NCBI GenBank assembly: GCA_040223615.1
Contig: JAVKFY010000069.1
Span: 1 to 64,000, forward strand
Direction: 5' to 3'
From: Alphaproteobacteria bacterium
GTDB taxonomy: Bacteria; Pseudomonadota; Alphaproteobacteria; GCA-2731375
Length of the DNA: 64,000 nt
Part shown: one piece after another, positions 1,612 to 57,926 of the stretch
How the letters are laid out: each line of letters opens with the position of its first letter
Position numbering within the stretch: the stretch's first letter is position 1
Notes under the pieces: model-generated
The model's input: only the letters and a program-made list of their open reading frames with translations
Database searches by the model: none
Told to the model about the DNA's origin: nothing
Made by a program: the position numbers and the translations under genes

Positions 1612-2478
1612 CTATTGCCGCGGCACCAGACGGATCGGGCCGGCGCCGGTCGCGGGCGTGGCGTCGGCGGTTGTCAGCGCCGCGGTCGGCATCGGCGCAG
1701 CGGCGGTCGTCGGCGCCGGCGCCGGTGCTGCCAGGGCGGCCGCCGCCTGTCGGCGCTCGGCCAGCGCCCGCGTCATCGCCTGCACGCGCGGGTCCTTCGG
1801 CGCCAGTTCGCGCGCCTTGTCCGCGAAGCTCTCCGCCAGCGCCAGGTCGCCGCGCTTGCTTACCTTGTGGGCCAGATCGACATAGCGGATGCCGAGGTGC
1901 AGCAGGCCGTCATGCGCCGGCTGGTGTTCGGGCGCCAGCGCCAGAACCTGTTCGTAGCTCTCGCGGGCGTTGTCGCCAGCCGGCGTGGTCAGCTTCAACT
2001 CCCGGGTCTGCCGCACGGCGCGCTCCATCAGGGTGGCGATCCGGGTCGCCTGGTCGTCGACGGACACGCCATCGTCGCGCGGCGCGGCGGCCGGCTCGGC
2101 GACGGTGAACGCCTCTTCCACGGACCGGACGGTGGGCACCTGAGCCCCGGGCTGCTCGCGCGCCGTGGCGCTGTTGACCAGGCGCGGCATCAGGTCCGTC
2201 AACGTCGCCGCGGTTTGTTGCGAGGTCGACGGCACGGGTGCCGACACCTCGGCGACATCACCGGGACGCCAGTTGTACTGCGTTGCGTACCAGACCACGC
2301 CCGCCGCGCCGGCGGTGAAGCCGACTCCCATCACCCCGCCGGCAACGACGCACTGCAACAGCCGCGCGGCCCAGCGCCGGCGCGGTTTGCGCGTAGGTGC
2401 CAGGTGAGGAGCGGGTCGCTCGGCAGCGACATCGGCGCCAAGCGACGGCGAATTCAGGCGTGCGCTATCGTTGTACAT
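1612..2478 (-). CDS. membrane-anchored TPR-like repeat protein (hypothetical)
   Basis: 288-aa ORF with one N-terminal TM helix (LLQCVVAGGVMGVGFTAGAAGVVWY) and TPR-like helical repeats in the C-terminal half; Ala/Pro-rich tail. Confidence 0.45.
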   Translation of the reverse strand: MYNDSARLNSPSLGADVAAERPAPHLAPTRKPRRRWAARLLQCVVAGGVMGVGFTAGAAGVVWYATQYNWRPGDVAEVSAPVPSTSQQTAATLTDLMPRLVNSATAREQPGAQVPTVRSVEEAFTVAEPAAAPRDDGVSVDDQATRIATLMERAVRQTRELKLTTPAGDNARESYEQVLALAPEHQPAHDGLLHLGIRYVDLAHKVSKRGDLALAESFADKARELAPKDPRVQAMTRALAERRQAAAALAAPAPAPTTAAAPMPTAALTTADATPATGAGPIRLVPRQ

Positions 2479-2586
2479 GGAGCCTCCTCCATGCAGCTGT
2501 CGGCCTTCCTGCCACGGGGCCTTCAGATGCGGGTTTTCGATCCAGTTACCGATTCAACGGGGTGCTACCGGATTCGGTTCCGCGAC

Positions 2587-3819
2587 CTATTCGTGGCGCA
2601 GGGCGTCGATCGGGTTCAAACGGCTGGCGCGGTGCGCCGGATACAGGCCGAAAAACATGCCGACCAGGGCCGAGGACGCCACCGATAGCGCGATGATCGT
2701 CGGCTCGATAACCACCGGGAATTCGCCGCCGCGCGCAATCACCACCGTGACCAGCACGCCGGCGGCCAGGCCGATCAGGCCGCCGGTCAGGCACAGCACC
2801 ACCGCTTCGACCAGGAACTGGTTGCGGATGTCGCGCCGGCGCGCGCCCAAAGCCATGCGCAGGCCGATCTCGCGGGTCCGTTCGGTCACCGCGACCAGCA
2901 TGATGTTCATGATCCCGATGCCACCGACCACCAGCGAGATGCCAGCGGTCGCGGCCAGCAGCAGGCCGAGCTGGCTGGAGGTCTCGTTGCGCGCCATCAC
3001 CGACTCGGTGGCGTCACGCACGTAGAAATCGTCCTCGCCGCCGGGCGGCACCTTGCGCCGCGCCCGCAACACCGCTTCCATCTCCGACTTCACCGCGTCG
3101 AGCTGATCCGGCAACGCCGCCTCGGCGAGTATCAACCGGACCTCGTCGCGCACCGTCACCCGGCGCCCGAACAGCCGCTTGCGCGCCGTGGTGATCGGCA
3201 CGATCACCTGGTCGTCCTGATCCGATCCCCAGGCCGACTCGCCCTTGCGGTCGAGCACGCCGATGACGTCGAACGGCACCGCCCCGATCCGCACCGTGCT
3301 GCCAAGCGGCGAGGTATCGCCGAACAGTTCCTCGCGCACTTTCTCGCCGAGTAGCGCCACCTTGACGCCGCCGCGCACCTCGGCGTCGCTGAACGCGCGC
3401 CCCTCCGCCACCGACCAGTCACGCACTTCCAGGTAGTCGGCGTCGGCGCCGATGATGCCGGTGGTCCAGTTGGCGTTGCCGTAGACCAGCGGCTGGTTGC
3501 GACGCATGTAGCCGGCCACCGCGACCAGGCCCGGCACCTCGTCGCGCAGCGCCGCGACGTCGCGGTCGGTCAGCGGCGACGGCGGCTCCTCGCCCTGCTG
3601 GCGCGGCCGGCGCGAACTGTCGCCGGCCCGCACGGTCAGCAGGTTGGCACCGATATTGGCGATCTCCTCCTCGACCTTCTGCTTGGCGCCGCTGCTCACC
3701 GAGACCATGACGATGACCGAGCCGACGCCGATGATCACGCCCAGCATCGCCAGCAGGCTGCGCAACGCGTTGACCCTGAGCGCGACCAGCGCGATGCGCA
3801 CCGAGACCAGCAGGTTCAT
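2587..3819 (-). CDS. ABC transporter permease, MacB/FtsX family (DevC-like)
   Basis: 410 aa; N-terminal TM, large periplasmic domain, C-terminal FtsX-type 3-TM bundle; ATGA overlap with upstream ATPase gene. Confidence 0.85.
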   Translation of the reverse strand: MNLLVSVRIALVALRVNALRSLLAMLGVIIGVGSVIVMVSVSSGAKQKVEEEIANIGANLLTVRAGDSSRRPRQQGEEPPSPLTDRDVAALRDEVPGLVAVAGYMRRNQPLVYGNANWTTGIIGADADYLEVRDWSVAEGRAFSDAEVRGGVKVALLGEKVREELFGDTSPLGSTVRIGAVPFDVIGVLDRKGESAWGSDQDDQVIVPITTARKRLFGRRVTVRDEVRLILAEAALPDQLDAVKSEMEAVLRARRKVPPGGEDDFYVRDATESVMARNETSSQLGLLLAATAGISLVVGGIGIMNIMLVAVTERTREIGLRMALGARRRDIRNQFLVEAVVLCLTGGLIGLAAGVLVTVVIARGGEFPVVIEPTIIALSVASSALVGMFFGLYPAHRASRLNPIDALRHE

Positions 3820-4529
3820 GGCGTCGTCTCGGATGGCGCGGCGGCGCTGTCCTCGGCCAGGCGGCCATCGTGGAACACCAGGCGGCGACGCGCGCAGGCG
3901 GCGATCTCGGCCTCGTGGGTGACCAGCACAACGGTAATTCCGTCACGGTTGAGCGCGTCGAAGATTGCCATGATCTCGCCCGAGGTCTGGCTGTCGAGCG
4001 CGCCGGTCGGCTCGTCGGCGAGCAGGATCGAGGGCCGGTTGACCAGTGCGCGGGCAATCGCCACGCGCTGCTGCTGGCCGCCGGAAAGCTGCGCCGGGTG
4101 GTGGTCCATGCGATCGGCCAGGCCGACTCGCTCCAGGCTCTCCGTGGCGCGGCGCCGGCGCTCGGCGGCGCCGATGCCGGCATAGACCAGCGGCAGCTCG
4201 ACATTGTGCAGCGCCGTGGTCCGGGGCAGCAGGTTGAACTGCTGGAACACGAAGCCGATGGCCCGGTTCCGAAATGCCGCCAGCGCGTCGGCGCCAAGGC
4301 CGCCGAGATCGCTGCCGTCGACGGTCAGCCTGCCGGCGCTCGGCACGTCGAGCGCACCCAGCAGGTTCATGAAGGTCGACTTGCCGGACCCGGACGGCCC
4401 CATCACCGCGACATACGCGCCGGCCTCGACGGCGAGCGACACGCCGCGCAGCGCCGCCACCTCGGTCTCGCCCATCTGGTAGGTCTTGTGCACGTCCTCC
4501 GCGCGGATCAGCGCTGTCGCGGCGGCCAT
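3816..4529 (-). CDS. ABC transporter ATP-binding protein (MacB/LolD-type, DevA-like)
   Basis: Walker A GPSGSGKST, signature LSGGQQQRVAIARAL, Walker B ILLADEPTGALD. Confidence 0.9.
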   Translation of the reverse strand: MAAATALIRAEDVHKTYQMGETEVAALRGVSLAVEAGAYVAVMGPSGSGKSTFMNLLGALDVPSAGRLTVDGSDLGGLGADALAAFRNRAIGFVFQQFNLLPRTTALHNVELPLVYAGIGAAERRRRATESLERVGLADRMDHHPAQLSGGQQQRVAIARALVNRPSILLADEPTGALDSQTSGEIMAIFDALNRDGITVVLVTHEAEIAACARRRLVFHDGRLAEDSAAAPSETTP

Positions 4530-4539
4530 TACCCGAGCC

Positions 4540-5970
4540 TCACTCGACCGCCTCGCGTGCCCGCAACACCACGACGTCGCCGGCGTTCAGCGCGTCGCTC
4601 GATACCTCGGTGACGCGCGCGTCGGAAATCCCGAGGCGGACGCGTCGAGCGGCGATCTTGCCGTCGTCGAGCCGCACCCAGACACTGCCGAACCGTATCT
4701 GCGCCACGCGCTCGGAGATCGCATCGTAGTTGGCGAGCTGCGCCGGGGACAGAACGCCGGACATCGCCTGACGGAACCGTTGGCGCATCGCTTCGCGATC
4801 GACATCGCCCGTAGTCATCTGGGCGGCCATGCCGGCGAAGGCTTGCTTCAGTGCCGCCTGGGCCTGCTCGACCTGCTCCGGCGTCATCTCCAGCTGCGGC
4901 GCCAGCCGTTCCAGGATGCGCGTTGACCGGCCGCCTTCCTGATCGGATCTCTGCACCAGCGCCCGCGCGCCGCCACGCGGGCGGAACCGCAAGGCCCCGT
5001 TCGGCACGGTCAGCACGCCCGCCCGCTCGCCGGTGACGATATCGACATTCGCGGTCATGCCAGGCAACAGCAGCCGGCGCGGGTTCGCCGCCGCGATCAC
5101 CACAGTGTAGGTGACGACGTTCTGCGCCTCGACGCCGGCGAGGCGGATCTGCTGCACCCTGCCCTCAAAGTTCACGTCGGGGTGAGCGTCGACGGTGAAC
5201 TTCACGGTCTGGCCCTCCTCGACCTGGCCGATGTCGGCCTCGTCGACCTGGGCGTCAATCTGCACCTCGCGCAGATCCTGGGCGATGACGAACAGCTTCG
5301 GCGCGTTCATCGCCGCCGCCACCGTCTGGCCCAGGTCGATGGCGCGGTCGATCACCACGCCGTCGATCGGCGCCCGGATGATGGTGCGTTCCAGGTCGAT
5401 ACGGGCGCTCTTCAAGGCGGCCTGGCGCTGGCGCAGGGTCGCCTTGGCGTTGGCGAGCTGGGCCTCGGCCACCGCCACCTCGGCCTGGCTGGTGGCCAGC
5501 GCGGTCTTGGCGTTGTCGTAGGCCGCCGCCGACATGTTGCCGCGCTTCACCAGCGCCTCGGCGCGCCGGAAGCTGTCCTCCGCCTGGCTCAGGTTGGCGC
5601 GCACGCGGGCAATGGCGGCGGCCTGCACCGCGACACCGGCCTGGGCGACGGCGACCGTGGCTTCCGCCTCGCTGACCCTGGCCTCGAAGGTCTTCGGATC
5701 GAGCCGGGCGATCACGTCGCCCTCGGCGACCTGGCTATTGAAGTCGGCGCCGAGTTCGGCGATCTGACCGGAGAGCTGCGAGCCGACTTCGACGGTGACC
5801 AACGCGCGCACCTTGCCGGACGTCGAGACCAGACGGCGCACGTCGGCAACCGCGACCTCGCCGGTTTCCAGCGTGACGCTGTTCTCGGCCGGCTGTTGCC
5901 ATTGCACGACGCCATAGGCGCCAGCGCCAATCAGCAACAGCACGGCTGCGATCAGCCCGATCCGCTTCAT
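4540..5970 (-). CDS. efflux transporter periplasmic adaptor subunit (HlyD/MacA/DevB family)
   Basis: 476 aa, N-terminal signal anchor, long coiled-coil rich in A/Q/E, beta-barrel/lipoyl-like segments typical of membrane fusion proteins; immediately upstream of the ATPase/permease pair. Confidence 0.85.
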   Translation of the reverse strand: MKRIGLIAAVLLLIGAGAYGVVQWQQPAENSVTLETGEVAVADVRRLVSTSGKVRALVTVEVGSQLSGQIAELGADFNSQVAEGDVIARLDPKTFEARVSEAEATVAVAQAGVAVQAAAIARVRANLSQAEDSFRRAEALVKRGNMSAAAYDNAKTALATSQAEVAVAEAQLANAKATLRQRQAALKSARIDLERTIIRAPIDGVVIDRAIDLGQTVAAAMNAPKLFVIAQDLREVQIDAQVDEADIGQVEEGQTVKFTVDAHPDVNFEGRVQQIRLAGVEAQNVVTYTVVIAAANPRRLLLPGMTANVDIVTGERAGVLTVPNGALRFRPRGGARALVQRSDQEGGRSTRILERLAPQLEMTPEQVEQAQAALKQAFAGMAAQMTTGDVDREAMRQRFRQAMSGVLSPAQLANYDAISERVAQIRFGSVWVRLDDGKIAARRVRLGISDARVTEVSSDALNAGDVVVLRAREAVE

Positions 5971-51047: not shown

Positions 51048-51233
51048 ATGACCGACACGGTGATCGACGCCGACGGGCATATCTGCGAGCCGCCGGAGAT
51101 GTGGCGCGACTATGTCCCGGCCAGATTCCGCGACCGGGTGATCCGGGTCGAGCGCGGCGACGACGGCCGCGACTGGCTATGGGTGAACGGCAAGGAACGG
51201 CGCGAGCGACATGTGCAAGGACGGCGCAATTGA
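51048..51233 (+). pseudogene. 5' fragment of an amidohydrolase-2 family gene (truncated at island boundary)
   Basis: MTDTVIDADGHICEPPEMWRDYVPARFRDRV… matches the conserved N-terminus of PF04909-type amidohydrolases but stops after 61 codons, where GC content drops. Confidence 0.5.
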
Positions 51234-51351
51234 CGACTGTGTCGACGCTAAAGCTGTCGCAACCTGATCAGAACGGTTTGAAAACCCTCTGGGCGGCGAA
51301 GCGCCTGGAACGCCGCTCTTCGAGGGAAGGGCGTAGCTCCTTCCCCGTTCA

Positions 51352-52071
51352 TTAATTGCCGAACTCGTACCCAAACAAGGCGATATCCTTGCAGTATATA
51401 TCCGCTACAAGATTGCGCGTGTCCGTATCGTATAGATCGACGTATCCGACCGTGCTGGGAGAAGCATCCTGAACCAGGGTGCGTCCCAGCTCGGGAAATC
51501 CTATCCTTTCGCGTACGATCGCTAGACTCTCTTCCCTGTTCTCAAGTCGACCGACGTAGTCAACGATCAAATTCTCCCGTTCATCCAGAACGAAATCAGC
51601 CGCTCCCAGGCTGTGAGCTGGATTATTGAACCAGCGGCCACTTCCCCCTCGCCTATGCGCGTCCAGTCCCCGCACATAGTCTTGAAAGGACACATCTGCC
51701 GGTATGCTCTGAACCTTGAGCCTCCAATGATACATGGAGGCTAGCCTTGCCCAAGGGTTTCTGACCATCGCGAAGGTGAACAGGTTGCCCCAGGCCTCCT
51801 CACCGATAAACTTTCGCATATTCACGGCTGGCACATGATCAGGGAAAATCTGCAGCGTCCAGCCTTTCCGCCCCCAGATGTTGTGCTTTCTGTAAACCAC
51901 ACCGCCATGCTTATACAAGTCGGTTCGGATGCTTGAAGAAGAGGTTCTCGGCACGTCAACAAACCAGTAGCCGTTGCTAACGATTCGGTATTTACCGTAC
52001 AAATGAAGAGCTGAGCTCATCCCTTTCCGAACAGCATTTGGCATTTCAGCCAACCTTGGGAAGGATGGCAT
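51352..52071 (-). CDS. sulfotransferase family protein (Sulfotransfer_2-like)
   Basis: 5'-PSB-like YWFVDVPRTSSSSIR and 3'-PB-like RNPWARLASMY motifs; AT-rich codon usage. Confidence 0.55.
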   Translation of the reverse strand: MPSFPRLAEMPNAVRKGMSSALHLYGKYRIVSNGYWFVDVPRTSSSSIRTDLYKHGGVVYRKHNIWGRKGWTLQIFPDHVPAVNMRKFIGEEAWGNLFTFAMVRNPWARLASMYHWRLKVQSIPADVSFQDYVRGLDAHRRGGSGRWFNNPAHSLGAADFVLDERENLIVDYVGRLENREESLAIVRERIGFPELGRTLVQDASPSTVGYVDLYDTDTRNLVADIYCKDIALFGYEFGN

Positions 52072-52095
52072 TTGATGTCCAGTGTCGGTAGTGTC

Positions 52096-53100
52096 TCACT
52101 TTGAATTCTGAGTCGCCCGCTTCTTGTACGGGCCGCGCGGGCCAGGCTTCGGCGCCCGCGCATCGATCAGCCCCACGATCCACGCCATGTCGCGCAACTC
52201 GGTCGCCACGCCAGCAGCCATTGCCGGCGACAGGCCCTTGAGGCTCTTGTGCTGCCGGCAGAAGTTATACCAGACGAAGTACAGCGACAGCGCGTGCGTG
52301 TGGTTCTCGACCTTCTTGCTGAAGGCGTTGGTCAGGCGAGTGAACCGGCGCATGGACATGCGCATGGTCAGGTTCTGCCGCTCCACGTAGCTGGTGCTGA
52401 CGTGCTTCGGATCGGGCTTGCCCTCGACGCGGCGGCGATGCGTGCCGATGCAGACCGGCGGGCTGTACCGGCGCTGGCCTTCAGGCGCTTGGCCGTACAA
52501 CTTCACGAGCTGGGCATAGTCCACGTCACCACCAAAAGCGCCCTCGACCGCATCGAGGTAGGCGCGGTGGCCATCGGTGGTTAGCTGCACACGATTGGCC
52601 AGCCGCCTCGCAACGTCGTCCATGAACTCCATCGCGAAGTCACCGTCGCGGCCGGGCGTTACCAGCCACGACACGATCAGCTTGGAGTCGCTGTCCAGCG
52701 CCGTCCACGTCCACACGTCGCCAGCGCCGTCCGGAGCCGCCTTCGCCGTCTTGACGTTCTTGGCCTTGGCGTAGGCGAAGCTCCAAATCTCGTCGGCCTG
52801 CACTCGCTTCGCTTTTACGTCGCGCACCGCCTCATCGTGGTAGGCGGCGCAGGCGTTGCCGGCGTCGACCAGCAGCTTGGTCACGGTGTTGATCGACACA
52901 TCGCACACGCGGCTGATCGACCGCATGGACGAGCCCTCGCACAGCATGGAGAGGATTTGGACGCGCTTCGCGAGGGGCAGCTTGTTAGCCATACCCTCAA
53001 TATATGAACTTCGATGCTTAGCGTCAAGAAATTTGTTCATAATGAAGCCGCATAGCGCCCTGCGACGGCTGGTCGCGGGAAATGACTCGTGCATTGTCAA
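52096..53100 (-). CDS. IS1-family-like DDE transposase (fused InsA-InsB-type single ORF)
   Basis: HTH N-terminus (…MRSISRVCDVSINTVTKLL…). InsB-like block ADEIWSF…W…TDGHRAY…ERQNL…FSK is co-linear with IS1 InsB (DEMWSF…TDGWPLY…ERHNL…FSK). Confidence 0.6.
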   Translation of the reverse strand: MTMHESFPATSRRRALCGFIMNKFLDAKHRSSYIEGMANKLPLAKRVQILSMLCEGSSMRSISRVCDVSINTVTKLLVDAGNACAAYHDEAVRDVKAKRVQADEIWSFAYAKAKNVKTAKAAPDGAGDVWTWTALDSDSKLIVSWLVTPGRDGDFAMEFMDDVARRLANRVQLTTDGHRAYLDAVEGAFGGDVDYAQLVKLYGQAPEGQRRYSPPVCIGTHRRRVEGKPDPKHVSTSYVERQNLTMRMSMRRFTRLTNAFSKKVENHTHALSLYFVWYNFCRQHKSLKGLSPAMAAGVATELRDMAWIVGLIDARAPKPGPRGPYKKRATQNSK

Positions 53101-53127
53101 GGCTAATGTGGTACCAAATATAGTACT

Positions 53128-53436
53128 ATGACGCCTCGCAAGCTAGCCCGCATTGAGGCTGACCTCGAATCCCTGCGGCGGTCGCCTCACAAGGCCGTCG
53201 CATATGAGCGTGTGGCGCAGAAGCTGGGACGGGTGCGGAAGAGTAGAGGAAAGGAGCCGATGTGGGAGAATCCGGAACTGCCAGGGCAGTTCCCCCTCGC
53301 GATTCCGCACCACGGAGGAAGGGACATACCAGTCGGCACACGCAACTCAATTTGCGACCAGCTAGAAAGCGACGTTCTGGCGTGGAGAGAAAAACTGGAA
53401 AGAGCAGCAAGAGCCAACGGTGGTAGTCATGGATAA
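53128..53436 (+). CDS. hicA: HicA-like toxin (type II TA), with N-terminal extension
   Basis: C-terminal IPHHGGRDIPVGTRNSICDQL resembles HicA …HPxKDLPxGTLxSILKQ…; directly upstream of and overlapping hicB. Confidence 0.5.
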   Translation: MTPRKLARIEADLESLRRSPHKAVAYERVAQKLGRVRKSRGKEPMWENPELPGQFPLAIPHHGGRDIPVGTRNSICDQLESDVLAWREKLERAARANGGSHG

Positions 53437-53950
53437 CCTTCAGGCAAAAGTAATGGAGCATCTAAGGAAGCCGTATGCTCGCGTGGTAACGCCAGAAGAT
53501 GACGGAACATTCCGCGCAGAAATTCTAGAGTTCTCTGGCTGTCTGGCCACCGGTGACACTGCGGCAAAAGCGCTTGAAGCGCTAGAACGTGTAGCAGAGA
53601 GCTGGCTAGAGTTCGTATTGGAGAAGGGGCAGCGCGTTCCTGACCCGATTGAAACAGCAGAGTACAGCGGCAAGTTGATGCTGCGACTTCCGAAGAGCCT
53701 CCACAAGAAGGCGGCACATGCAGCAGATCGGGACGGAGTAAGCCTTAACCAGTTCATTGTCAGCAGTGTTGCCCTTGAAGTGGGAGAGCGCGTCGCACCC
53801 CAGCAAGTAGCCCAGCCCCAAAGCGTAGTGTTCGTGGCAGTGGCAAATGCCGGTGCGCAATGGATTGCGACTGGGTTCAATTCCGCAGCAACTACCGCCG
53901 GCATCCTTACCCCGTTGACCGTCCCAATAGGAGCACTCCGTCATGCCTGA
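53420..53950 (+). CDS. hicB: HicB family antitoxin (HicB_lk N-domain + C-terminal RHH)
   Basis: N-terminal VVTPEDDGTFRAEILEFSGCLATGDTAAKALEALERVAESWLEF HicB fold; C-terminal MLRLPKSLHKKAAHAADRDGVSLNQFIVSSVA ribbon-helix-helix. Confidence 0.65.
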   Translation: MVVMDNLQAKVMEHLRKPYARVVTPEDDGTFRAEILEFSGCLATGDTAAKALEALERVAESWLEFVLEKGQRVPDPIETAEYSGKLMLRLPKSLHKKAAHAADRDGVSLNQFIVSSVALEVGERVAPQQVAQPQSVVFVAVANAGAQWIATGFNSAATTAGILTPLTVPIGALRHA

Positions 53951-54227
53951 GATTGACCAGTACTCCCTCAGCCACAAGGAGCTTCTTGAGATTCTGATAA
54001 AGAAGTTCGGCGTGCACGAAGGGCGCTGGGCGTTATCAATGCAGTTCGGCATAGCCACGGGGCTCAACCTCCCGTCGCCATCTGGAGGCCCCGGGCTGGG
54101 GTTTGGAGTACTGATTGACAAGTTAGGGATACAGCGCGCGGCTGGGGAGCCGTCTGGCTTGGTGCTTGACGCCGCTGAAGTAAATCCAACGCCAGCAGAG
54201 TCGAAAGGACGGCGCAAGAAAGCCTAG
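53943..54227 (+). CDS. hypothetical protein (94 aa), start overlaps hicB stop
   Basis: ATGCCTGA overlap with hicB; no recognisable domain. Confidence 0.3.
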   Translation: MPEIDQYSLSHKELLEILIKKFGVHEGRWALSMQFGIATGLNLPSPSGGPGLGFGVLIDKLGIQRAAGEPSGLVLDAAEVNPTPAESKGRRKKA

Positions 54228-54463
54228 CGCTTCCACCGCTTCGCCGCAGCCTTCCGAGCGATTTCGGTCCGCTGCTCGGGAGTCAGCTTCTTCGCTCGGG
54301 CAGCGCCACCCTTCCGGCCGAGCGCCTGGGCGGCCTTGTCCTTGCCGTCGTCGTCGCGCTCGGTGTCGTCCTCGACCTCGCCCGTGGCGATCTGCGCCAC
54401 GCGGATGGCGTTACCGATCACGTCGGCCGGGCGCTTCTGGCCCTTTGGTCCCTTCGGCATCAA
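54224..54463 (-). CDS. small lysine/arginine-rich basic protein (possible nucleic-acid binding)
   Basis: 79 aa, MMPKGPKGQKRPADVIGNAIRVAQIATGEVEDD… RKGGAARAKKLTPEQRTEIARKAAAKRWKR. Confidence 0.35.
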   Translation of the reverse strand: MMPKGPKGQKRPADVIGNAIRVAQIATGEVEDDTERDDDGKDKAAQALGRKGGAARAKKLTPEQRTEIARKAAAKRWKR

Positions 54464-54590
54464 CCCTCCTGGATATGCTTGTCGCTAAGCATATAGGGGC
54501 TTGGCCAAGAACACCAACAGCTACCGGTAGACATAACGCCCCGAATCGTGCGTTGCTCTCGCTACCCTGAACAGCACCGGAACTCAGCAG

Positions 54591-55304
54591 TTGTCGATAT
54601 TCGACCACGCCAACAGCAAGTACCTGTATTTACGCACCAAATTCTCAGTCTACCAGTCAATCGACCTGTTCCACGATCTTGCCGACGATATGCCCGACGA
54701 AGCCAGGGTGTTCTTTCTCCGCGTCGCCGGGATGCCGATGCCCTGGGAGAACGGCACCGTCATCAAAATCTGCGCGCCCCAAGCGCTCAATGACCTTGTC
54801 GGAGCGCTACGACCAACCTTGTCCGAGTTCGATGCGTGGGCAATGGTCGACGGCCGTGGCGAGTGGTCCGAGAGCTTAGGCGAGGGGCCGCTAAGCCTGT
54901 ACTGGTCAGCGGCCAGCCTCGAATCAGGTCGGGCCGGCATGGCTCAGATGGCCCTCGTCTTCCGGTTCAACGACAGAGACAAGGATGGTACAGCGGACAG
55001 GGTGCGCCAGGCACTGCGACCGCTAACCGCCCGCCCAGTATTCTGGACCGATCCTGGCAGGGTGCTTTTTATCCATACCGACCAACCAGCGAGTACCCTA
55101 GCCCGACGTATCGAACGGCACCTGCCGGCCCTTTACTCGTGGTTTGTGTGCGACGCAAACGGCAACACGTTATCCGGCTTCGTGGGGCGCGACATCGACC
55201 CTTGGCGGATGGTCGATATGCGGTCGGTCGGATATGTGCCCGATGACGAGTTCGAAGTCTGGCCCGATGACGAGTTAGACGACGATTCCCAAGAGAGCGC
55301 CTGA
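54591..55304 (+). CDS. hypothetical protein (237 aa) with acidic C-terminal tail
   Basis: No recognisable family; C-terminus DDEFEVWPDDELDDDSQESA. Confidence 0.35.
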   Translation: MSIFDHANSKYLYLRTKFSVYQSIDLFHDLADDMPDEARVFFLRVAGMPMPWENGTVIKICAPQALNDLVGALRPTLSEFDAWAMVDGRGEWSESLGEGPLSLYWSAASLESGRAGMAQMALVFRFNDRDKDGTADRVRQALRPLTARPVFWTDPGRVLFIHTDQPASTLARRIERHLPALYSWFVCDANGNTLSGFVGRDIDPWRMVDMRSVGYVPDDEFEVWPDDELDDDSQESA

Positions 55305-55764
55305 AGGCCGAGCACCTGCCTGACAGTCACAGGCGGCAAACTCGGATCGAATGCCCTGGCCACCGATCCGTAGGCCGCTACGCTGTTCAAGTGGAAGTAG
55401 GCTCGCTCGGGCAGCCAGCGTTGGAACAACTTGAGCACACGAAGCGTCCAATAGGCTGGGCGGGAGCGCCACGCATCTCGCATGTCAACCCCGCCCGTTT
55501 TCAAACTGAGACACTACCCCAGTGTCTTCTTTTCGCCTGTTGTGAACAAATTTGTAACGGACGGCGAGCGTCTGATAAGCCGATGTACGAAACCTATTCC
55601 TGCTGCAATCGGAACGACGCCACACTCTGTTGAGGACAGAAGTCGTCGGCACAGGCGATACGGTGCGCCGTTCGCCTGGCGCACAACTCAGAAGCTTCGA
55701 TTCATCCGAAAGCGTCAGTCAGCTCATAGCCTGCGGCTATTCGCGGTCGTTAACTGAAGCTGAG

Positions 55765-56763
55765 CTAGATCCGCCCCTCTTCGACCGCGTGGCAGGCAAC
55801 GTGGGCCTCGGCCACGGTGCGCAGCACCGGGCGTTCGGCCATGCACCGGTCGTTGGCGTGCGGACAGCGCGGGTGGAACGGACAGCCAGACGGCGGGTTG
55901 ATCGGGCTTGGCACCTCGCCGGCGACCGGCACCCGTTGCCGCCCGGTCATGTCGAGGTCCGGGATCGCGTCCAGCAGCATCCGCGTGTACGGATGACGCG
56001 GATTGCGGAACAGGTACTTGGTCTCCGCCCACTCCACCAGCCGGCCCAGGTACATCACCCCGACATGGGTCGAGACGTGATAGACCACGGCCAGGTCGTG
56101 GCTGATGAACAGGTAGGTCAGCCCCAATTGCCGTTGTAAGTCGCGCATCAGGTTCAGGATCTGCGCCTGCACCGAGACGTCCAGCGCCGAGGTCGGCTCG
56201 TCGCAGACCAGGAAGTCCGGCTCGCCGGCCAGCGCCCGGGCGATCGAGATGCGCTGGCGCTGTCCGCCGGAGAATTCGTGCGGGTATTTCTCCGCATCCA
56301 GCGGCGACAGCCCGACCTGACTCAGCAGCTCGCCGGCACGCTTTCGCAGATCCATGCCGCCGGCCCGGCGCAGCGCCACGATCGGCTCGACCACGATCTC
56401 GCCGACGCGCCAGCGCGGGTTCAGCGAGGCATAGGGATCCTGGAAGATCATCTGCATGCGCGGCTGCACCTGTGCGCGCGCCGCACCGTGGCCCTTGGCG
56501 CCGATCTCCACGCCCTCGAAAAGGATCGACCCGGCCGACGCGCCGTACAGCCCGACGATCAGGCGTGCCACCGTTGACTTGCCGCAACCGCTCTCGCCGA
56601 CCAGCGAGAAGGTCTCGCCCTTGGCGATGCGGAAGTCGATGCCGTCGACCGCCTTCACCACCGCGCGCGGGCGCCGCTCGATGACCCGGTTCAGCCACGG
56701 CGGCGACACGTCGAAGTAGCGTGCCAGGTCGGCGACCTGGAGCAGCGGCGTCGCCTCGCTCAT
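55765..56763 (-). CDS. dppF: dipeptide/oligopeptide ABC transporter ATP-binding protein DppF
   Basis: Start MSEATPLLQVADL…; Walker A GESGCGKST, signature FSGGQRQRISIARAL, C-terminal oligopeptide-ABC extension (CPFHPRCP). Confidence 0.85.
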   Translation of the reverse strand: MSEATPLLQVADLARYFDVSPPWLNRVIERRPRAVVKAVDGIDFRIAKGETFSLVGESGCGKSTVARLIVGLYGASAGSILFEGVEIGAKGHGAARAQVQPRMQMIFQDPYASLNPRWRVGEIVVEPIVALRRAGGMDLRKRAGELLSQVGLSPLDAEKYPHEFSGGQRQRISIARALAGEPDFLVCDEPTSALDVSVQAQILNLMRDLQRQLGLTYLFISHDLAVVYHVSTHVGVMYLGRLVEWAETKYLFRNPRHPYTRMLLDAIPDLDMTGRQRVPVAGEVPSPINPPSGCPFHPRCPHANDRCMAERPVLRTVAEAHVACHAVEEGRI

Positions 56764-56940
56764 GGCCGTGCCCAGCAGGACACGGCCTGTCCGTAAATAT
56801 GAGCGTGCTGTTGCGCGCTCATGGCCGTGCCCAGCAGGACACGGCCTGTCCAAAGTTATGAGCGTGCTGTTGCGGGCTCATGGCCGTGCCCAACAGGACA
56901 CGGCCTGTCCAAAGTTATGAGCGTGCTGTTGCGCGCTCAT
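56761..56940 (-). repeat. three tandem copies of a 59-bp element at the dppD/dppF junction, each carrying a hairpin and an ATGA-coupled 20-codon mini-ORF
   Basis: Unit starts at 56761, 56820 and 56879 (plus strand catggccgtgccca[g/a]caggacacggcctgtcc[gt/aa]aa[at/gt]tatgagcgtgctgttgcg[c/g]gct), with a fourth CATG at 56938. Reverse-strand mini-ORFs 56940..56878, 56881..56819 and 56822..56760 encode MSAQQHAHNFGQAVSCWARP, MSPQQHAHNFGQAVSCWARP and MSAQQHAHIYGQAVSCWARP. Confidence 0.8.
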
Positions 56941-57926
56941 GCCGGCACCTCTTCGAACAGGTGGCAGGCGGTGTCGACCCCGTCGACATTGCGCAGTTCC
57001 GGCCGCTGTTCGCGGCACCGGTCCATCACCCTCGGGCAGCGCGGATGGAAGGCGCAGCCGGTGGGGTGATCGGTCAGCCGCGGCATCGAGCCCTCGATCT
57101 GCACCAGCCGGTCGACGTCGGCGCCGACATGCGGGATCGAGCCCATCAGGCCCACCGTGTAGGGATGCTTGGCATTGCGCACAACCTCGCGCACCGGCCC
57201 GACCTCGACGATGCGGCCGGCATACATCACCGCGACCCGGTCGGCCGCCTCGGCAATCACGCCCATGTCGTGCGTCACCAGCATCACCGCGGTGTGGTGT
57301 TCGCGGCAAAGCCGTTTCAGCAGACTGATGATCTGCGCCTGGATCGACACGTCCAGCGCCGTGGTCGGCTCGTCGGCGATGATCAGCCGCGGCTCCGCGC
57401 ACAGCGCCAGCGCGATCACCACCCGTTGCCGCATGCCGCCGGAGAACTGGTGCGGATAATGGTCGAGGCGTTCTTCCGCCGCCGGAATGCCGACCTCCTT
57501 GAGCAGGTCCAGCGCCCGCGCCCGGGCCTGCTTCTCGGTCATCGGCAAGTGCGTCTGGATCGTCTCGATGAGCTGCTTGGAGACCCGGTAGAGCGGGTTC
57601 AGGCTGGTCAGCGGGTCCTGGAAGATCGCGCCGATACGGCGGCCGCGAATTCGGCGCATCTGCTCGTAGGGCAAATCGTCGATGCGCTCGCCCTCCAGCC
57701 GGATTTCGCCGTCGGCGATGCGCCCCGGGGGCTCCAGCAGGCCGATCACGGCAGCACCTGTCATCGACTTGCCGGCGCCGCTCTCGCCGACCACGCCCAG
57801 CACCTCGCCGGGGTCGATATGCAGTGACACGTCGTGCACCGCGACCAGCGTGCCACGCCGGGTTGGGAACTCGACCCGCAGGTTCTTGACCTCCAGGAGA
57901 GGCTGGTTGGCGGGGATCTTGGTCAT
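56937..57926 (-). CDS. dppD: dipeptide/oligopeptide ABC transporter ATP-binding protein DppD
   Basis: Start MTKIPANQPLLEVKNL… (ATGA overlap with dppC stop); Walker A GESGAGKS, signature FSGGMRQRVVIALAL; the 702-aa ORF in the track is an unstopped upstream extension of this frame. Confidence 0.85.
   Translation of the reverse strand: MTKIPANQPLLEVKNLRVEFPTRRGTLVAVHDVSLHIDPGEVLGVVGESGAGKSMTGAAVIGLLEPPGRIADGEIRLEGERIDDLPYEQMRRIRGRRIGAIFQDPLTSLNPLYRVSKQLIETIQTHLPMTEKQARARALDLLKEVGIPAAEERLDHYPHQFSGGMRQRVVIALALCAEPRLIIADEPTTALDVSIQAQIISLLKRLCREHHTAVMLVTHDMGVIAEAADRVAVMYAGRIVEVGPVREVVRNAKHPYTVGLMGSIPHVGADVDRLVQIEGSMPRLTDHPTGCAFHPRCPRVMDRCREQRPELRNVDGVDTACHLFEEVPA

Follow-up and report, generated by a model that had tools for sequence, protein, structure and literature searches.

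The 64-kb stretch of alphaproteobacterial DNA analyzed here (contig JAVKFY010000069.1, positions 1 to 64,000; hereafter the window) contains a region of approximately 51.2–55.76 kb in which the GC content is 0.54–0.60, against 0.63–0.72 in both flanks (400-nt windows). In this region we found a complete, cargo-carrying insertion sequence (IS) of the IS1 family, i.e., a transporter IS, with a length of 3,432 bp (52087–55518, transposase on the minus strand). It is nested in a small foreign segment of about 1.1 kb, also of low GC content, that holds a sulfotransferase gene (51234–52086 plus 55527–55764). A preliminary description of the locus, made from the sequence alone, had already recognized the low-GC stretch as foreign, which the composition profile confirms, and every open reading frame (ORF) that it named was found in its place, including those of 79, 237 and 123 amino acids. 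However, it had taken the stretch for a single 4.5-kb insertion, and this does not hold, as the transposon has its own repeats and target duplication. The profile also shows a partial GC rise over the transposase inside the low-GC stretch.

The element is bounded by two terminal inverted repeats of 19 nt, GGTAGTGTCTCA[C/G]TTTGAA, that differ at one of their 19 positions; two matches to this pattern were found in the window, where 0.01 would be expected. The right inverted repeat (IRR, 52087–52105, GGTAGTGTCTCACTTTGAA) overlaps the transposase stop codon and is near-identical across the transposon family described below, and the left inverted repeat (IRL, 55500–55518) is the reverse complement of GGTAGTGTCTCAGTTTGAA. 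Directly against both repeats stands a perfect 8-bp direct repeat, the target-site duplication CCAGTGTC, with its left copy at 52079–52086 and its right copy at 55519–55526. Direct repeats had been anticipated for this locus, and they are present, although at these inner positions and not at 51.2 and 55.7 kb. The repeats and the duplication delimit an intact element that holds the genes for the transposase, hicA-like, hicB, orf94, orf79, orf237 and orf123 and excludes the sulfotransferase gene. Deleting 52087–55518 in silico joins 52086 to 55527 and gives a continuous sulfotransferase upstream region. The low-GC island is hence a nested structure, with an IS1-like transposon inside a small foreign sulfotransferase segment.

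The transposase is encoded by a single intact ORF on the minus strand that spans 52096–53100, with a likely product of 298 amino acids that begins at 52992 (52096–52992). It is a DDE transposase with an N-terminal helix-turn-helix (HTH). IS1 models are its best matches, which bears out the single-ORF IS1-like transposase of the preliminary description: the score with Pfam DDE_Tnp_IS1 is 24.1 bits, exactly at the cut-off of 24.1, and NCBIfam transpos_IS1 is the best family (E = 3.4e-15), at 56.5 bits versus a cut-off of 100. One homologue is annotated by NCBI as 'IS1 family transposase'. The family-invariant residues D103, D176 and E240 (334-amino-acid numbering) are all kept in the window transposase. 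As to InsA, there was no match to Zn_Tnp_IS1 or HTH_Tnp_IS1 of Pfam.

The sulfotransferase gene (51352–52071, minus strand) lies outside the transposon. Transposase, right repeat and sulfotransferase are all co-directional, and the gap of 15 nt between repeat and sulfotransferase start codon holds no obvious ribosome-binding site. With 27.8 bits against Pfam PF03567 (Sulfotransfer_2; cut-off 22) the protein belongs to family 2, as had been proposed. It also matches PHROG 3347 (E = 6e-16), and distant homologues with 22–28% identity, annotated as sulfotransferase family 2, are found on alphaproteobacterial plasmids. The ATG (52071) is located 8 bp past the target duplication. The IS has probably separated the gene from the promoter that it originally had, and the gene may now depend for its expression on read-through from the IS.

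On the other side of the segment lies an N-terminal remnant of an amidohydrolase-superfamily (Amidohydro_2-like) gene of 61 codons (51048–51233, plus strand). Residues 7–52 of this stub align to residues 8–52 of the 356-amino-acid PtmU3 (PDB 6omp, E = 2.9e-5), and the homology stops near codon 52; on its own, the fragment has no match in Pfam. The stop codon of dppF is located at 55765, and the 238 nt between it and the IS leave no room for the remaining ~290 amidohydrolase codons. As these codons are absent and not displaced, the gene was affected by replacement or deletion and not by simple splitting. The truncation suggested earlier is thus genuine insofar as the PtmU3 match identifies a true N-terminal fragment, but the gene was not merely interrupted, as its 3′ part is missing. 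A synteny check via the adenylate cyclase neighbour in a metagenome scan gave only distant relatives (at most 47% identity), none adjoining an amidohydrolase; searching plasmids by tblastn with the 61-amino-acid fragment gave nothing, and no syntenic locus with an intact amidohydrolase was found. At the outer island edges, the repeat search found no meaningful direct or inverted repeats; there is no tRNA gene within 40–64 kb of the window, and the ORF survey found no integrase at the island. An attachment-site model for the outer edges is not supported, given the lack of edge repeats and of a tRNA gene.

A transposon family with a two-gene core

When genomes, one for each species, were scanned with the transposase, more than 570 relatives were confirmed, most of them from Alphaproteobacteria; identity was 68–87% among those kept, and 80 of these loci were fetched. 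In 70 of the 80, the same repeat pair was found 2.2–5.6 kb apart, mostly with 0–1 mismatch. These 70 sister elements and that of the window make up the set of 71 elements considered in the following. Target duplications were seen in 60 of the 70 assessable elements, the window's counted, with a length of 8 bp in 58 cases and of 9 bp and 7 bp in one case each. The exact repeat had no match in 120 unrelated loci. Two orf79 homologues that were sampled independently, from large contigs, again led to repeat-bounded elements with a transposase.

All-against-all ORF clustering showed that only the transposase and orf79 are common to all 71 elements. At the DNA level, matches of the window element to the family are confined to three blocks, namely the left repeat (element positions 1–36), orf79 (1022–1295) and the transposase with the right repeat (2474–3432). 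The closest relative, L002, is 84–85% identical in these three blocks and unrelated between them; cargo was thus swapped between backbones otherwise 84–85% identical. In none of the 71 elements is the gap between orf79 and the transposase gene empty; it measures 699–3,597 nt. Furthermore, 38 of the 71 carry extra DNA after the transposase, and in 47 a variable small ORF is translationally coupled upstream of orf79. The family architecture features three cargo slots. No 'empty' element was seen among the 71, although the gap between orf79 and the transposase showed neither a third conserved gene nor a conserved DNA block.

Members with near-perfect repeats were also present in non-proteobacterial contigs, i.e., in metagenome-assembled genomes of Dehalococcoidia (L007) and of Candidatus Marinacidobacterales (L034 and L041), which suggests either wide horizontal spread or binning errors. 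A Mutator/IS256-family transposase (Pfam Transposase_mut, E = 1e-77) is nested in a cargo slot of L041 at 3946–5253; the slots thus trap other insertion sequences, too.

For a census of the cargo, 135 non-core ORFs of at least 110 amino acids from the 70 sister elements were scanned with Pfam and PADLOC. Pfam found IrrE/Peptidase_M78 (16) and HTH_3 (15) most often, followed by P63C (9), SDH protease (4), AAA_16 (4), nSTAND1 (3), PemK (3) and PIN (2), with one match each for Fic, SocA/Panacea, an AbiEii-type ATPase and the nested Mutator-family transposase. PADLOC matched RmrA of Rosmer 14 times (best E = 2e-187), RmrT 3–4 times, PD-Lambda-2_B 4 times (E = 6e-50) and PD-T4-5 3 times. Judged by these homologies, genes predicted to act in anti-phage defence and in toxin-antitoxin pairs dominate the cargo of the sister elements.

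The second core gene, orf79 (54224–54460, minus strand), encodes a basic protein of 78 amino acids when counted from the ATG at 54460, which is preceded by an AGGAGG ribosome-binding site. In 71 of 71 elements it lies on the transposase strand and on the left-repeat side. The K/R-rich protein of 79 amino acids that had been listed among the uncharacterized passengers is therefore part of the transposon core. Its family counts 4,663 homologues in the protein collection, for which NCBI uses the names 'RNA-binding protein', 'histone H1' or hypothetical; it matches no Pfam family, and no relative was found in the PDB. The last 30 residues of the orf79 product are similar to the N-terminal part of P63C-domain proteins of phages (PHROG 2384, E = 7e-7). 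In ten loci (L009, L011, L017, L028, L037, L040, L042, L050, L058 and L182), P63C-domain cargo proteins start with a GG-ARA-LSPE-R-EIA-KAA-RW motif that equals the orf79 C-terminus, and in the same ten loci the P63C cargo genes are convergent with orf79 and overlap its end.

Both core genes are preceded by the same 18-bp palindrome, ATGCTT-N6-AAGCAT, which matched 80 times (at most one mismatch) in the 71 elements, versus 0.3 times in shuffles. Site 1 is perfect in the window (54475–54492) and lies 14 nt upstream of the orf79 start codon. It is present in 56 of the 71 elements, in 53 of them at 51–78 nt from the left repeat; in the window element it is displaced to 1,027 nt from this repeat because cargo A inserted between them. 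Site 2 (53014–53031), upstream of the transposase ATG, has the family consensus ATGCTTGACgCTAAGCAT, from which the window deviates by two mismatches. The consensus includes a TTGAC −35 element, and at least 35 of the 71 elements have the site ~63–67 nt ahead of a conserved codon of the transposase gene. In the window, site 2 overlaps the −35 element of a promoter-like TTGACG-17-TATATT (minus strand, 53027 to 52999) shortly before the transposase ATG; in a promoter scan, the number of promoter-like sites in the region was not above chance. The same palindrome before both core genes suggests a common dimeric regulator. The obvious candidate would be orf79, which sits where insA does in IS1, and its product might hence be a small nucleic-acid-binding regulator that acts at both palindromes.

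Cargo of the window element

The slot between orf79 and the transposase, cargo B, holds three overlapping genes on the plus strand. The first (53128–53436) encodes a HicA-like protein of 102 amino acids with an N-terminal helix extension. It belongs to a divergent subfamily of 98–114 amino acids that has this N-terminal helix and in which the Gly of the Gly-x-His motif is invariant. The second gene encodes a HicB antitoxin of 173 amino acids (53429–53950, alternative start 53420), with 50.2 bits for Pfam HicB (cut-off 21) and 36 bits for UPF0150. Its layout comprises a UPF0150/HicB N-domain, a ribbon-helix-helix domain and a non-conserved C-terminal extension of ~60 amino acids; it thus conforms to an antitoxin with a DNA-binding domain encoded directly downstream of hicA, and its ATG overlaps the hicA stop codon by 8 nt (ATGGATAA). 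The third gene, orf94 (53943–54227), starts in overlap with the hicB stop codon, with the junction ATGCCTGA at 53943–53950. Members of the orf94 family have 82–105 amino acids, an invariant HEG and a C-terminal DAAEVNP motif; homologues were rare, with 3 in a search of 5.8 billion proteins and 8 in viral contigs, and orf94 had no match in Pfam, PDB, PADLOC or PHROGs.

The unusual three-gene operon noticed in the preliminary description proved to be a genuine recurrent module, as hicA(-like), hicB and orf94 follow each other also in L083, L173, L174, L176, L179 and L180. In L083 (Sphingomonas sp. RB56-2, JAMGBB010000001.1, 4150–5258) the triad lies between a prohead protease and tail genes. The host cluster of L083 is a degenerate head-to-tail cluster that resembles a gene transfer agent or prophage; its capsid region is apparently missing, and it has no IS repeats. 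In L175, a gene of 132 amino acids is followed by an XRE-type antitoxin and orf94, and in L085 an XRE-like protein and orf94 converge on an orf79 homologue, so that L085 is probably another member of the IS family. Wherever upstream sequence was available, orf94 was located directly downstream of a HicB or XRE antitoxin, and in the ten loci with an unambiguously readable junction its start codon and the stop codon of the antitoxin gene overlap, the sequence being [A/G]TGnCTGA in six cases. All partner antitoxins carry an extension past the DNA-binding domain, which has ~60 amino acids in the window and 49–99 amino acids in L173, L175, L176 and L180 and is not conserved in sequence. Gene order and antitoxin architecture thus show orf94 as a conserved putative partner of antitoxins with C-terminal extensions. 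In the IMG/VR contig L178 (3095–3966), a divergent orf94-like gene follows a protein of 197 amino acids with a sulfotransferase-like PRSGTS motif, just past a phage portal gene; this echo of the window's sulfotransferase is probably a coincidence.

Cargo A, between the left repeat and orf79, consists of two genes. For the product of orf237 (54591–55304, plus strand), which has an acidic tail, AlphaFold2 gave a confident model (predicted local distance difference test, pLDDT, 89.5) of about three ferredoxin-like (beta-alpha-beta-beta-alpha-beta) domains in tandem, to which structure searches returned generic single-domain matches only. Exhaustive phmmer searching found 102 relatives, whereas a word-indexed search found only orf237 itself; on the strength of these homologues, it can be taken to belong to a real protein family. 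One homologue, in L086, occupies the same repeat-proximal slot of another family member and adjoins a PD-Lambda-2_B-like gene; others are stand-alone genes in varied, partly mobile contexts. The small gene orf123 (55133–55504, minus strand) has a conserved core of residues 22–70 (55295–55441) and a tail that is antisense to the 3′ end of orf237. Over residues 22–70 it shares 53% identity with the equivalent ORF of L086 (E = 4e-16 pairwise) at a DNA level that is barely alignable, and it is absent beside the stand-alone orf237 homologues. Probably, orf123 is hence a real small gene.

Rfam gave no match at E up to 1 across 50.5–56.5 kb. Outside the low-GC stretch, at or close to the point where two ABC-transporter ATPase genes (dppF/dppD-like) meet, a 59-nt unit is repeated in 3.1 copies with 94% matches (56757–56941). 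Each unit holds a GC-rich hairpin-like segment and resembles a REP-type intergenic repeat, and the array gives a series of overlapping spurious ORFs.

Proposed account and its alternatives

With a probability of about 80%, we assume that two events shaped the locus. A ~1.1-kb low-GC segment with the sulfotransferase gene would have replaced the 3′ ~85% of an amidohydrolase-superfamily gene, and the 3,432-bp transporter IS with its cargo would then have transposed into the sulfotransferase upstream region, duplicating CCAGTGTC. Read in transposase orientation, the element is ordered as IRL, cargo A, site 1 with ribosome-binding site and orf79, cargo B, site 2 with its promoter-like sequence, transposase and IRR; in this orientation orf123 is a sense gene, and orf237 as well as hicA-like/hicB/orf94 are antisense.

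This structural account is well supported, and from architecture and family context we infer a functional one. The transposase would move the whole unit via the 19-nt repeats, and orf79, whose place corresponds to that of InsA in IS1, might act as a regulator at the pair of palindromes. Cargo B would be a tripartite module of toxin-antitoxin type in which HicB neutralizes the HicA-like protein and orf94 may act on the C-terminal extension of HicB, by analogy with SecB in toxin-antitoxin-chaperone (TAC) systems. The module could stabilize the element and/or abort phage infection, and cargo A might be a further accessory or defence candidate. Taken jointly, the results might point to a large family, so far undescribed, of compact 'defence shuttles' derived from IS1, mainly in Alphaproteobacteria, with a two-gene core of the transposase and a novel small regulator that would act at the shared palindrome and with cassette-like slots between the two, and to a new tripartite toxin-antitoxin class in which a ~90-amino-acid DAAEVNP protein, and not SecB, partners extended HicB or XRE antitoxins; we offer this wide reading tentatively, and it is rather unlikely to be right in all its parts.

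Several observations, given here and with the alternatives that they touch, weigh against one part or another of these assumptions. The window's own cargo matches no defence system in PADLOC 2.0, and the hit of orf237 to HEC-01B is insignificant (E = 0.022). The neighbourhood typical of anti-phage defence that had been proposed for the island is thus found at family level, where PADLOC matched RmrA, PD-Lambda-2_B and PD-T4-5 in sister cargo, but not in the window. Moreover, the transposon family may already be named in ISfinder.

The candidate regulator orf79 has no detectable DNA-binding domain, and the name 'RNA-binding protein' that some of its homologues bear does not speak for a regulator of transposition, either. 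Though less probably, orf79 might instead encode a nucleoid-associated, RNA-binding or cargo-silencing protein, or it might be part of a conserved addiction or defence function that the element carries everywhere. Such roles would agree with the second NCBI name, 'histone H1', with the C-terminal likeness to P63C proteins and with the translational coupling to variable small ORFs in two thirds of the elements (47/71). However, orf79 is universal, is encoded on the strand of the transposase close to the left repeat and has its palindrome in common with the transposase, which fits an element-linked function.

As to cargo B, the earlier claim of a hicA-hicB pair stands for hicB and is less certain for its partner. 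The HicA-like protein scores 23.5 bits on Pfam HicA_toxin, below the cut-off of 27 bits. In HicA, Gly22 and His24 of the Gly-x-His motif are essential (PMC12297915), but an alignment to HicA 9svk places a Glu at the position of the catalytic His, with the Gly kept (RGKEP where canonical HicA has G-S-H). In the strict sense of a Gly-x-His toxin domain, the window protein is thus not a HicA. For orf94, a Pfam search with four members of its family, run at E up to 5, found neither SecB nor any other family, and the AlphaFold2 model from an alignment of four sequences was unusable (pLDDT 43), so that only the architecture of the module speaks for a chaperone-like role. Equally, orf94 could be a toxin downstream of its antitoxin.

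Accordingly, orf94 might be the toxin, or a second toxin, of an antitoxin-then-toxin pair, and the HicA-like protein might be degenerating or auxiliary. An upstream antitoxin, a ~90-amino-acid protein downstream and overlapping codons are the standard type II layout, and orf94 pairs with two antitoxin classes, HicB and XRE; the Glu in the window's HicA-like protein would fit as well. Yet the toxin position upstream is occupied wherever sequence is available (seven HicA-type genes and one gene of 132 amino acids), and the long, non-conserved C-terminal extensions of all partner antitoxins are a hallmark of chaperone-addicted antitoxins. RGKEP is present also in L173 and L179, whereas the His is retained in L083, L174, L176 and L180. 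Simple decay of the HicA-like gene was set aside since three divergent loci share RGKEP, as would be expected under selection, and we read it as a functional variant. A toxin role of orf94 hence appears unlikely to us, and we favour the tripartite module.

Only one copy of the element was seen, both in the window and in the single matching assembly, so that recent activity can be deduced solely from the perfect target duplication. This single detectable copy, the non-canonical HicA-like protein and the two mismatches in site 2 could indicate an immobile fossil with decaying, non-functional cargo. We regard this as improbable, since all ORFs are intact and of full length compared with their homologues, conserved homologues of the cargo proteins exist in other loci, and the two copies of the target duplication are identical, with repeats matching at 18 of 19 positions and the residues D, D and E retained. 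Least probable, and contradicted by the data, is one genomic island of ~4.5 kb that entered an intact amidohydrolase gene in one piece: the low GC content is indeed contiguous over ~51.23–55.76 kb and the amidohydrolase ORF ends exactly at the GC drop, but repeats and 8-bp duplication bound only 52087–55518, removal of this part restores the sulfotransferase upstream region, the outer edges lack repeats, integrase and tRNA gene, and the rest of the amidohydrolase is missing and not displaced.

Relation to known systems and significance

Elements of the IS1 family have terminal repeats that start with GGnnnTG and generate target duplications of 8–9 bp (ISfinder). The repeats of the window element begin with GGTAGTG and thus fit this pattern, the duplication has 8 bp, and IS1 models describe the transposase best. 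Single-ORF and long, ISMhu11-type IS1 members in ISfinder are presumably its closest known relatives. In contrast to IS1, which encodes InsA and a frameshifted InsAB', the transposase is encoded in one ORF and has an HTH of its own. The element thus does not have the insA and insB' genes with programmed −1 frameshift in ~0.7–1.2 kb, and its length is 3,432 bp. It further differs from IS1 by the second universal gene orf79, which is unrelated to InsA and split from the transposase by a cargo slot, and by the palindrome shared upstream of both core genes and the three cargo slots of its family. A transporter IS, or tIS, is an IS that carries passenger genes within its own repeats (concept cited in PMC9330008). 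The window element conforms to this concept, since one pair of IS repeats encloses its passenger genes and a single target duplication borders the complete unit. Elements of this kind are known. Like defence-cargo transposons and hotspots, such as Tn7-like elements with their cargo and the Tn3 family, in which toxin-antitoxin pairs are carried (PMC7157771), it combines a mobile backbone with a variable slot for defence and toxin-antitoxin genes. Compared with these carriers, the family elements are far smaller, at 2.2–5.6 kb, have an IS1-type backbone with 1–3 genes per slot and occur mostly in Alphaproteobacteria.

TAC systems combine HigBA, MqsRA or HicAB with a variable 'chaperone addiction' extension at the antitoxin C-terminus and a dedicated SecB-like third gene (Bordes et al. 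2016, PMC5105189). Cargo B resembles them in having three genes, with toxin-antitoxin pairs from differing families that include HicAB, and in the variable, non-conserved antitoxin extension with which a conserved third gene travels. It differs from them in that orf94 has no SecB similarity and, with 82–105 amino acids in its family and the HEG and DAAEVNP motifs, is half the size of SecB, and in that a divergent HicA-like protein, with Glu for the catalytic His, frequently occupies the toxin position. The abstract of the Gerdes 2024 survey (PMC10865869) lists 14 HicA contexts, of which eight are bicistronic, four are fused and two lie beside Viperin genes; a hicA-hicB-X tricistron is absent among these 14. 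As in the classical hicAB class 4 of that survey, which has a HicB with ribbon-helix-helix domain, hicA lies upstream, the codons overlap, and the HicB/UPF0150 N-domain is followed by ribbon-helix-helix. Unlike in classical hicAB, the window HicA has 102 amino acids with an N-terminal extension and the RGKEP motif. Literature searches yielded no description of the transposon family or of the hicA-like/hicB/orf94 triad, with ISfinder and TnCentral outside their scope, and both the family organization and the three-gene module appear to be undescribed in the literature searched.

For the source genome the result is ordinary in kind: an exact mobile element, its insertion site and a gene-by-gene account replace a vaguely defined island. 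At the level of the family, a fixed backbone with slots that recurrently hold RmrA, PD-Lambda-2_B-like and toxin-antitoxin genes provides an anchor for guilt by association, by which orf237 and orf94 become candidate defence or addiction genes. If the wide reading given above is true, the slots could act as a natural trap for finding new defence systems. The triad suggests that chaperone addiction of the kind known from SecB-type systems may also operate through another partner protein of far smaller size. Furthermore, the second universal small protein and the shared palindrome point to a regulatory circuit not described for IS1-type elements.

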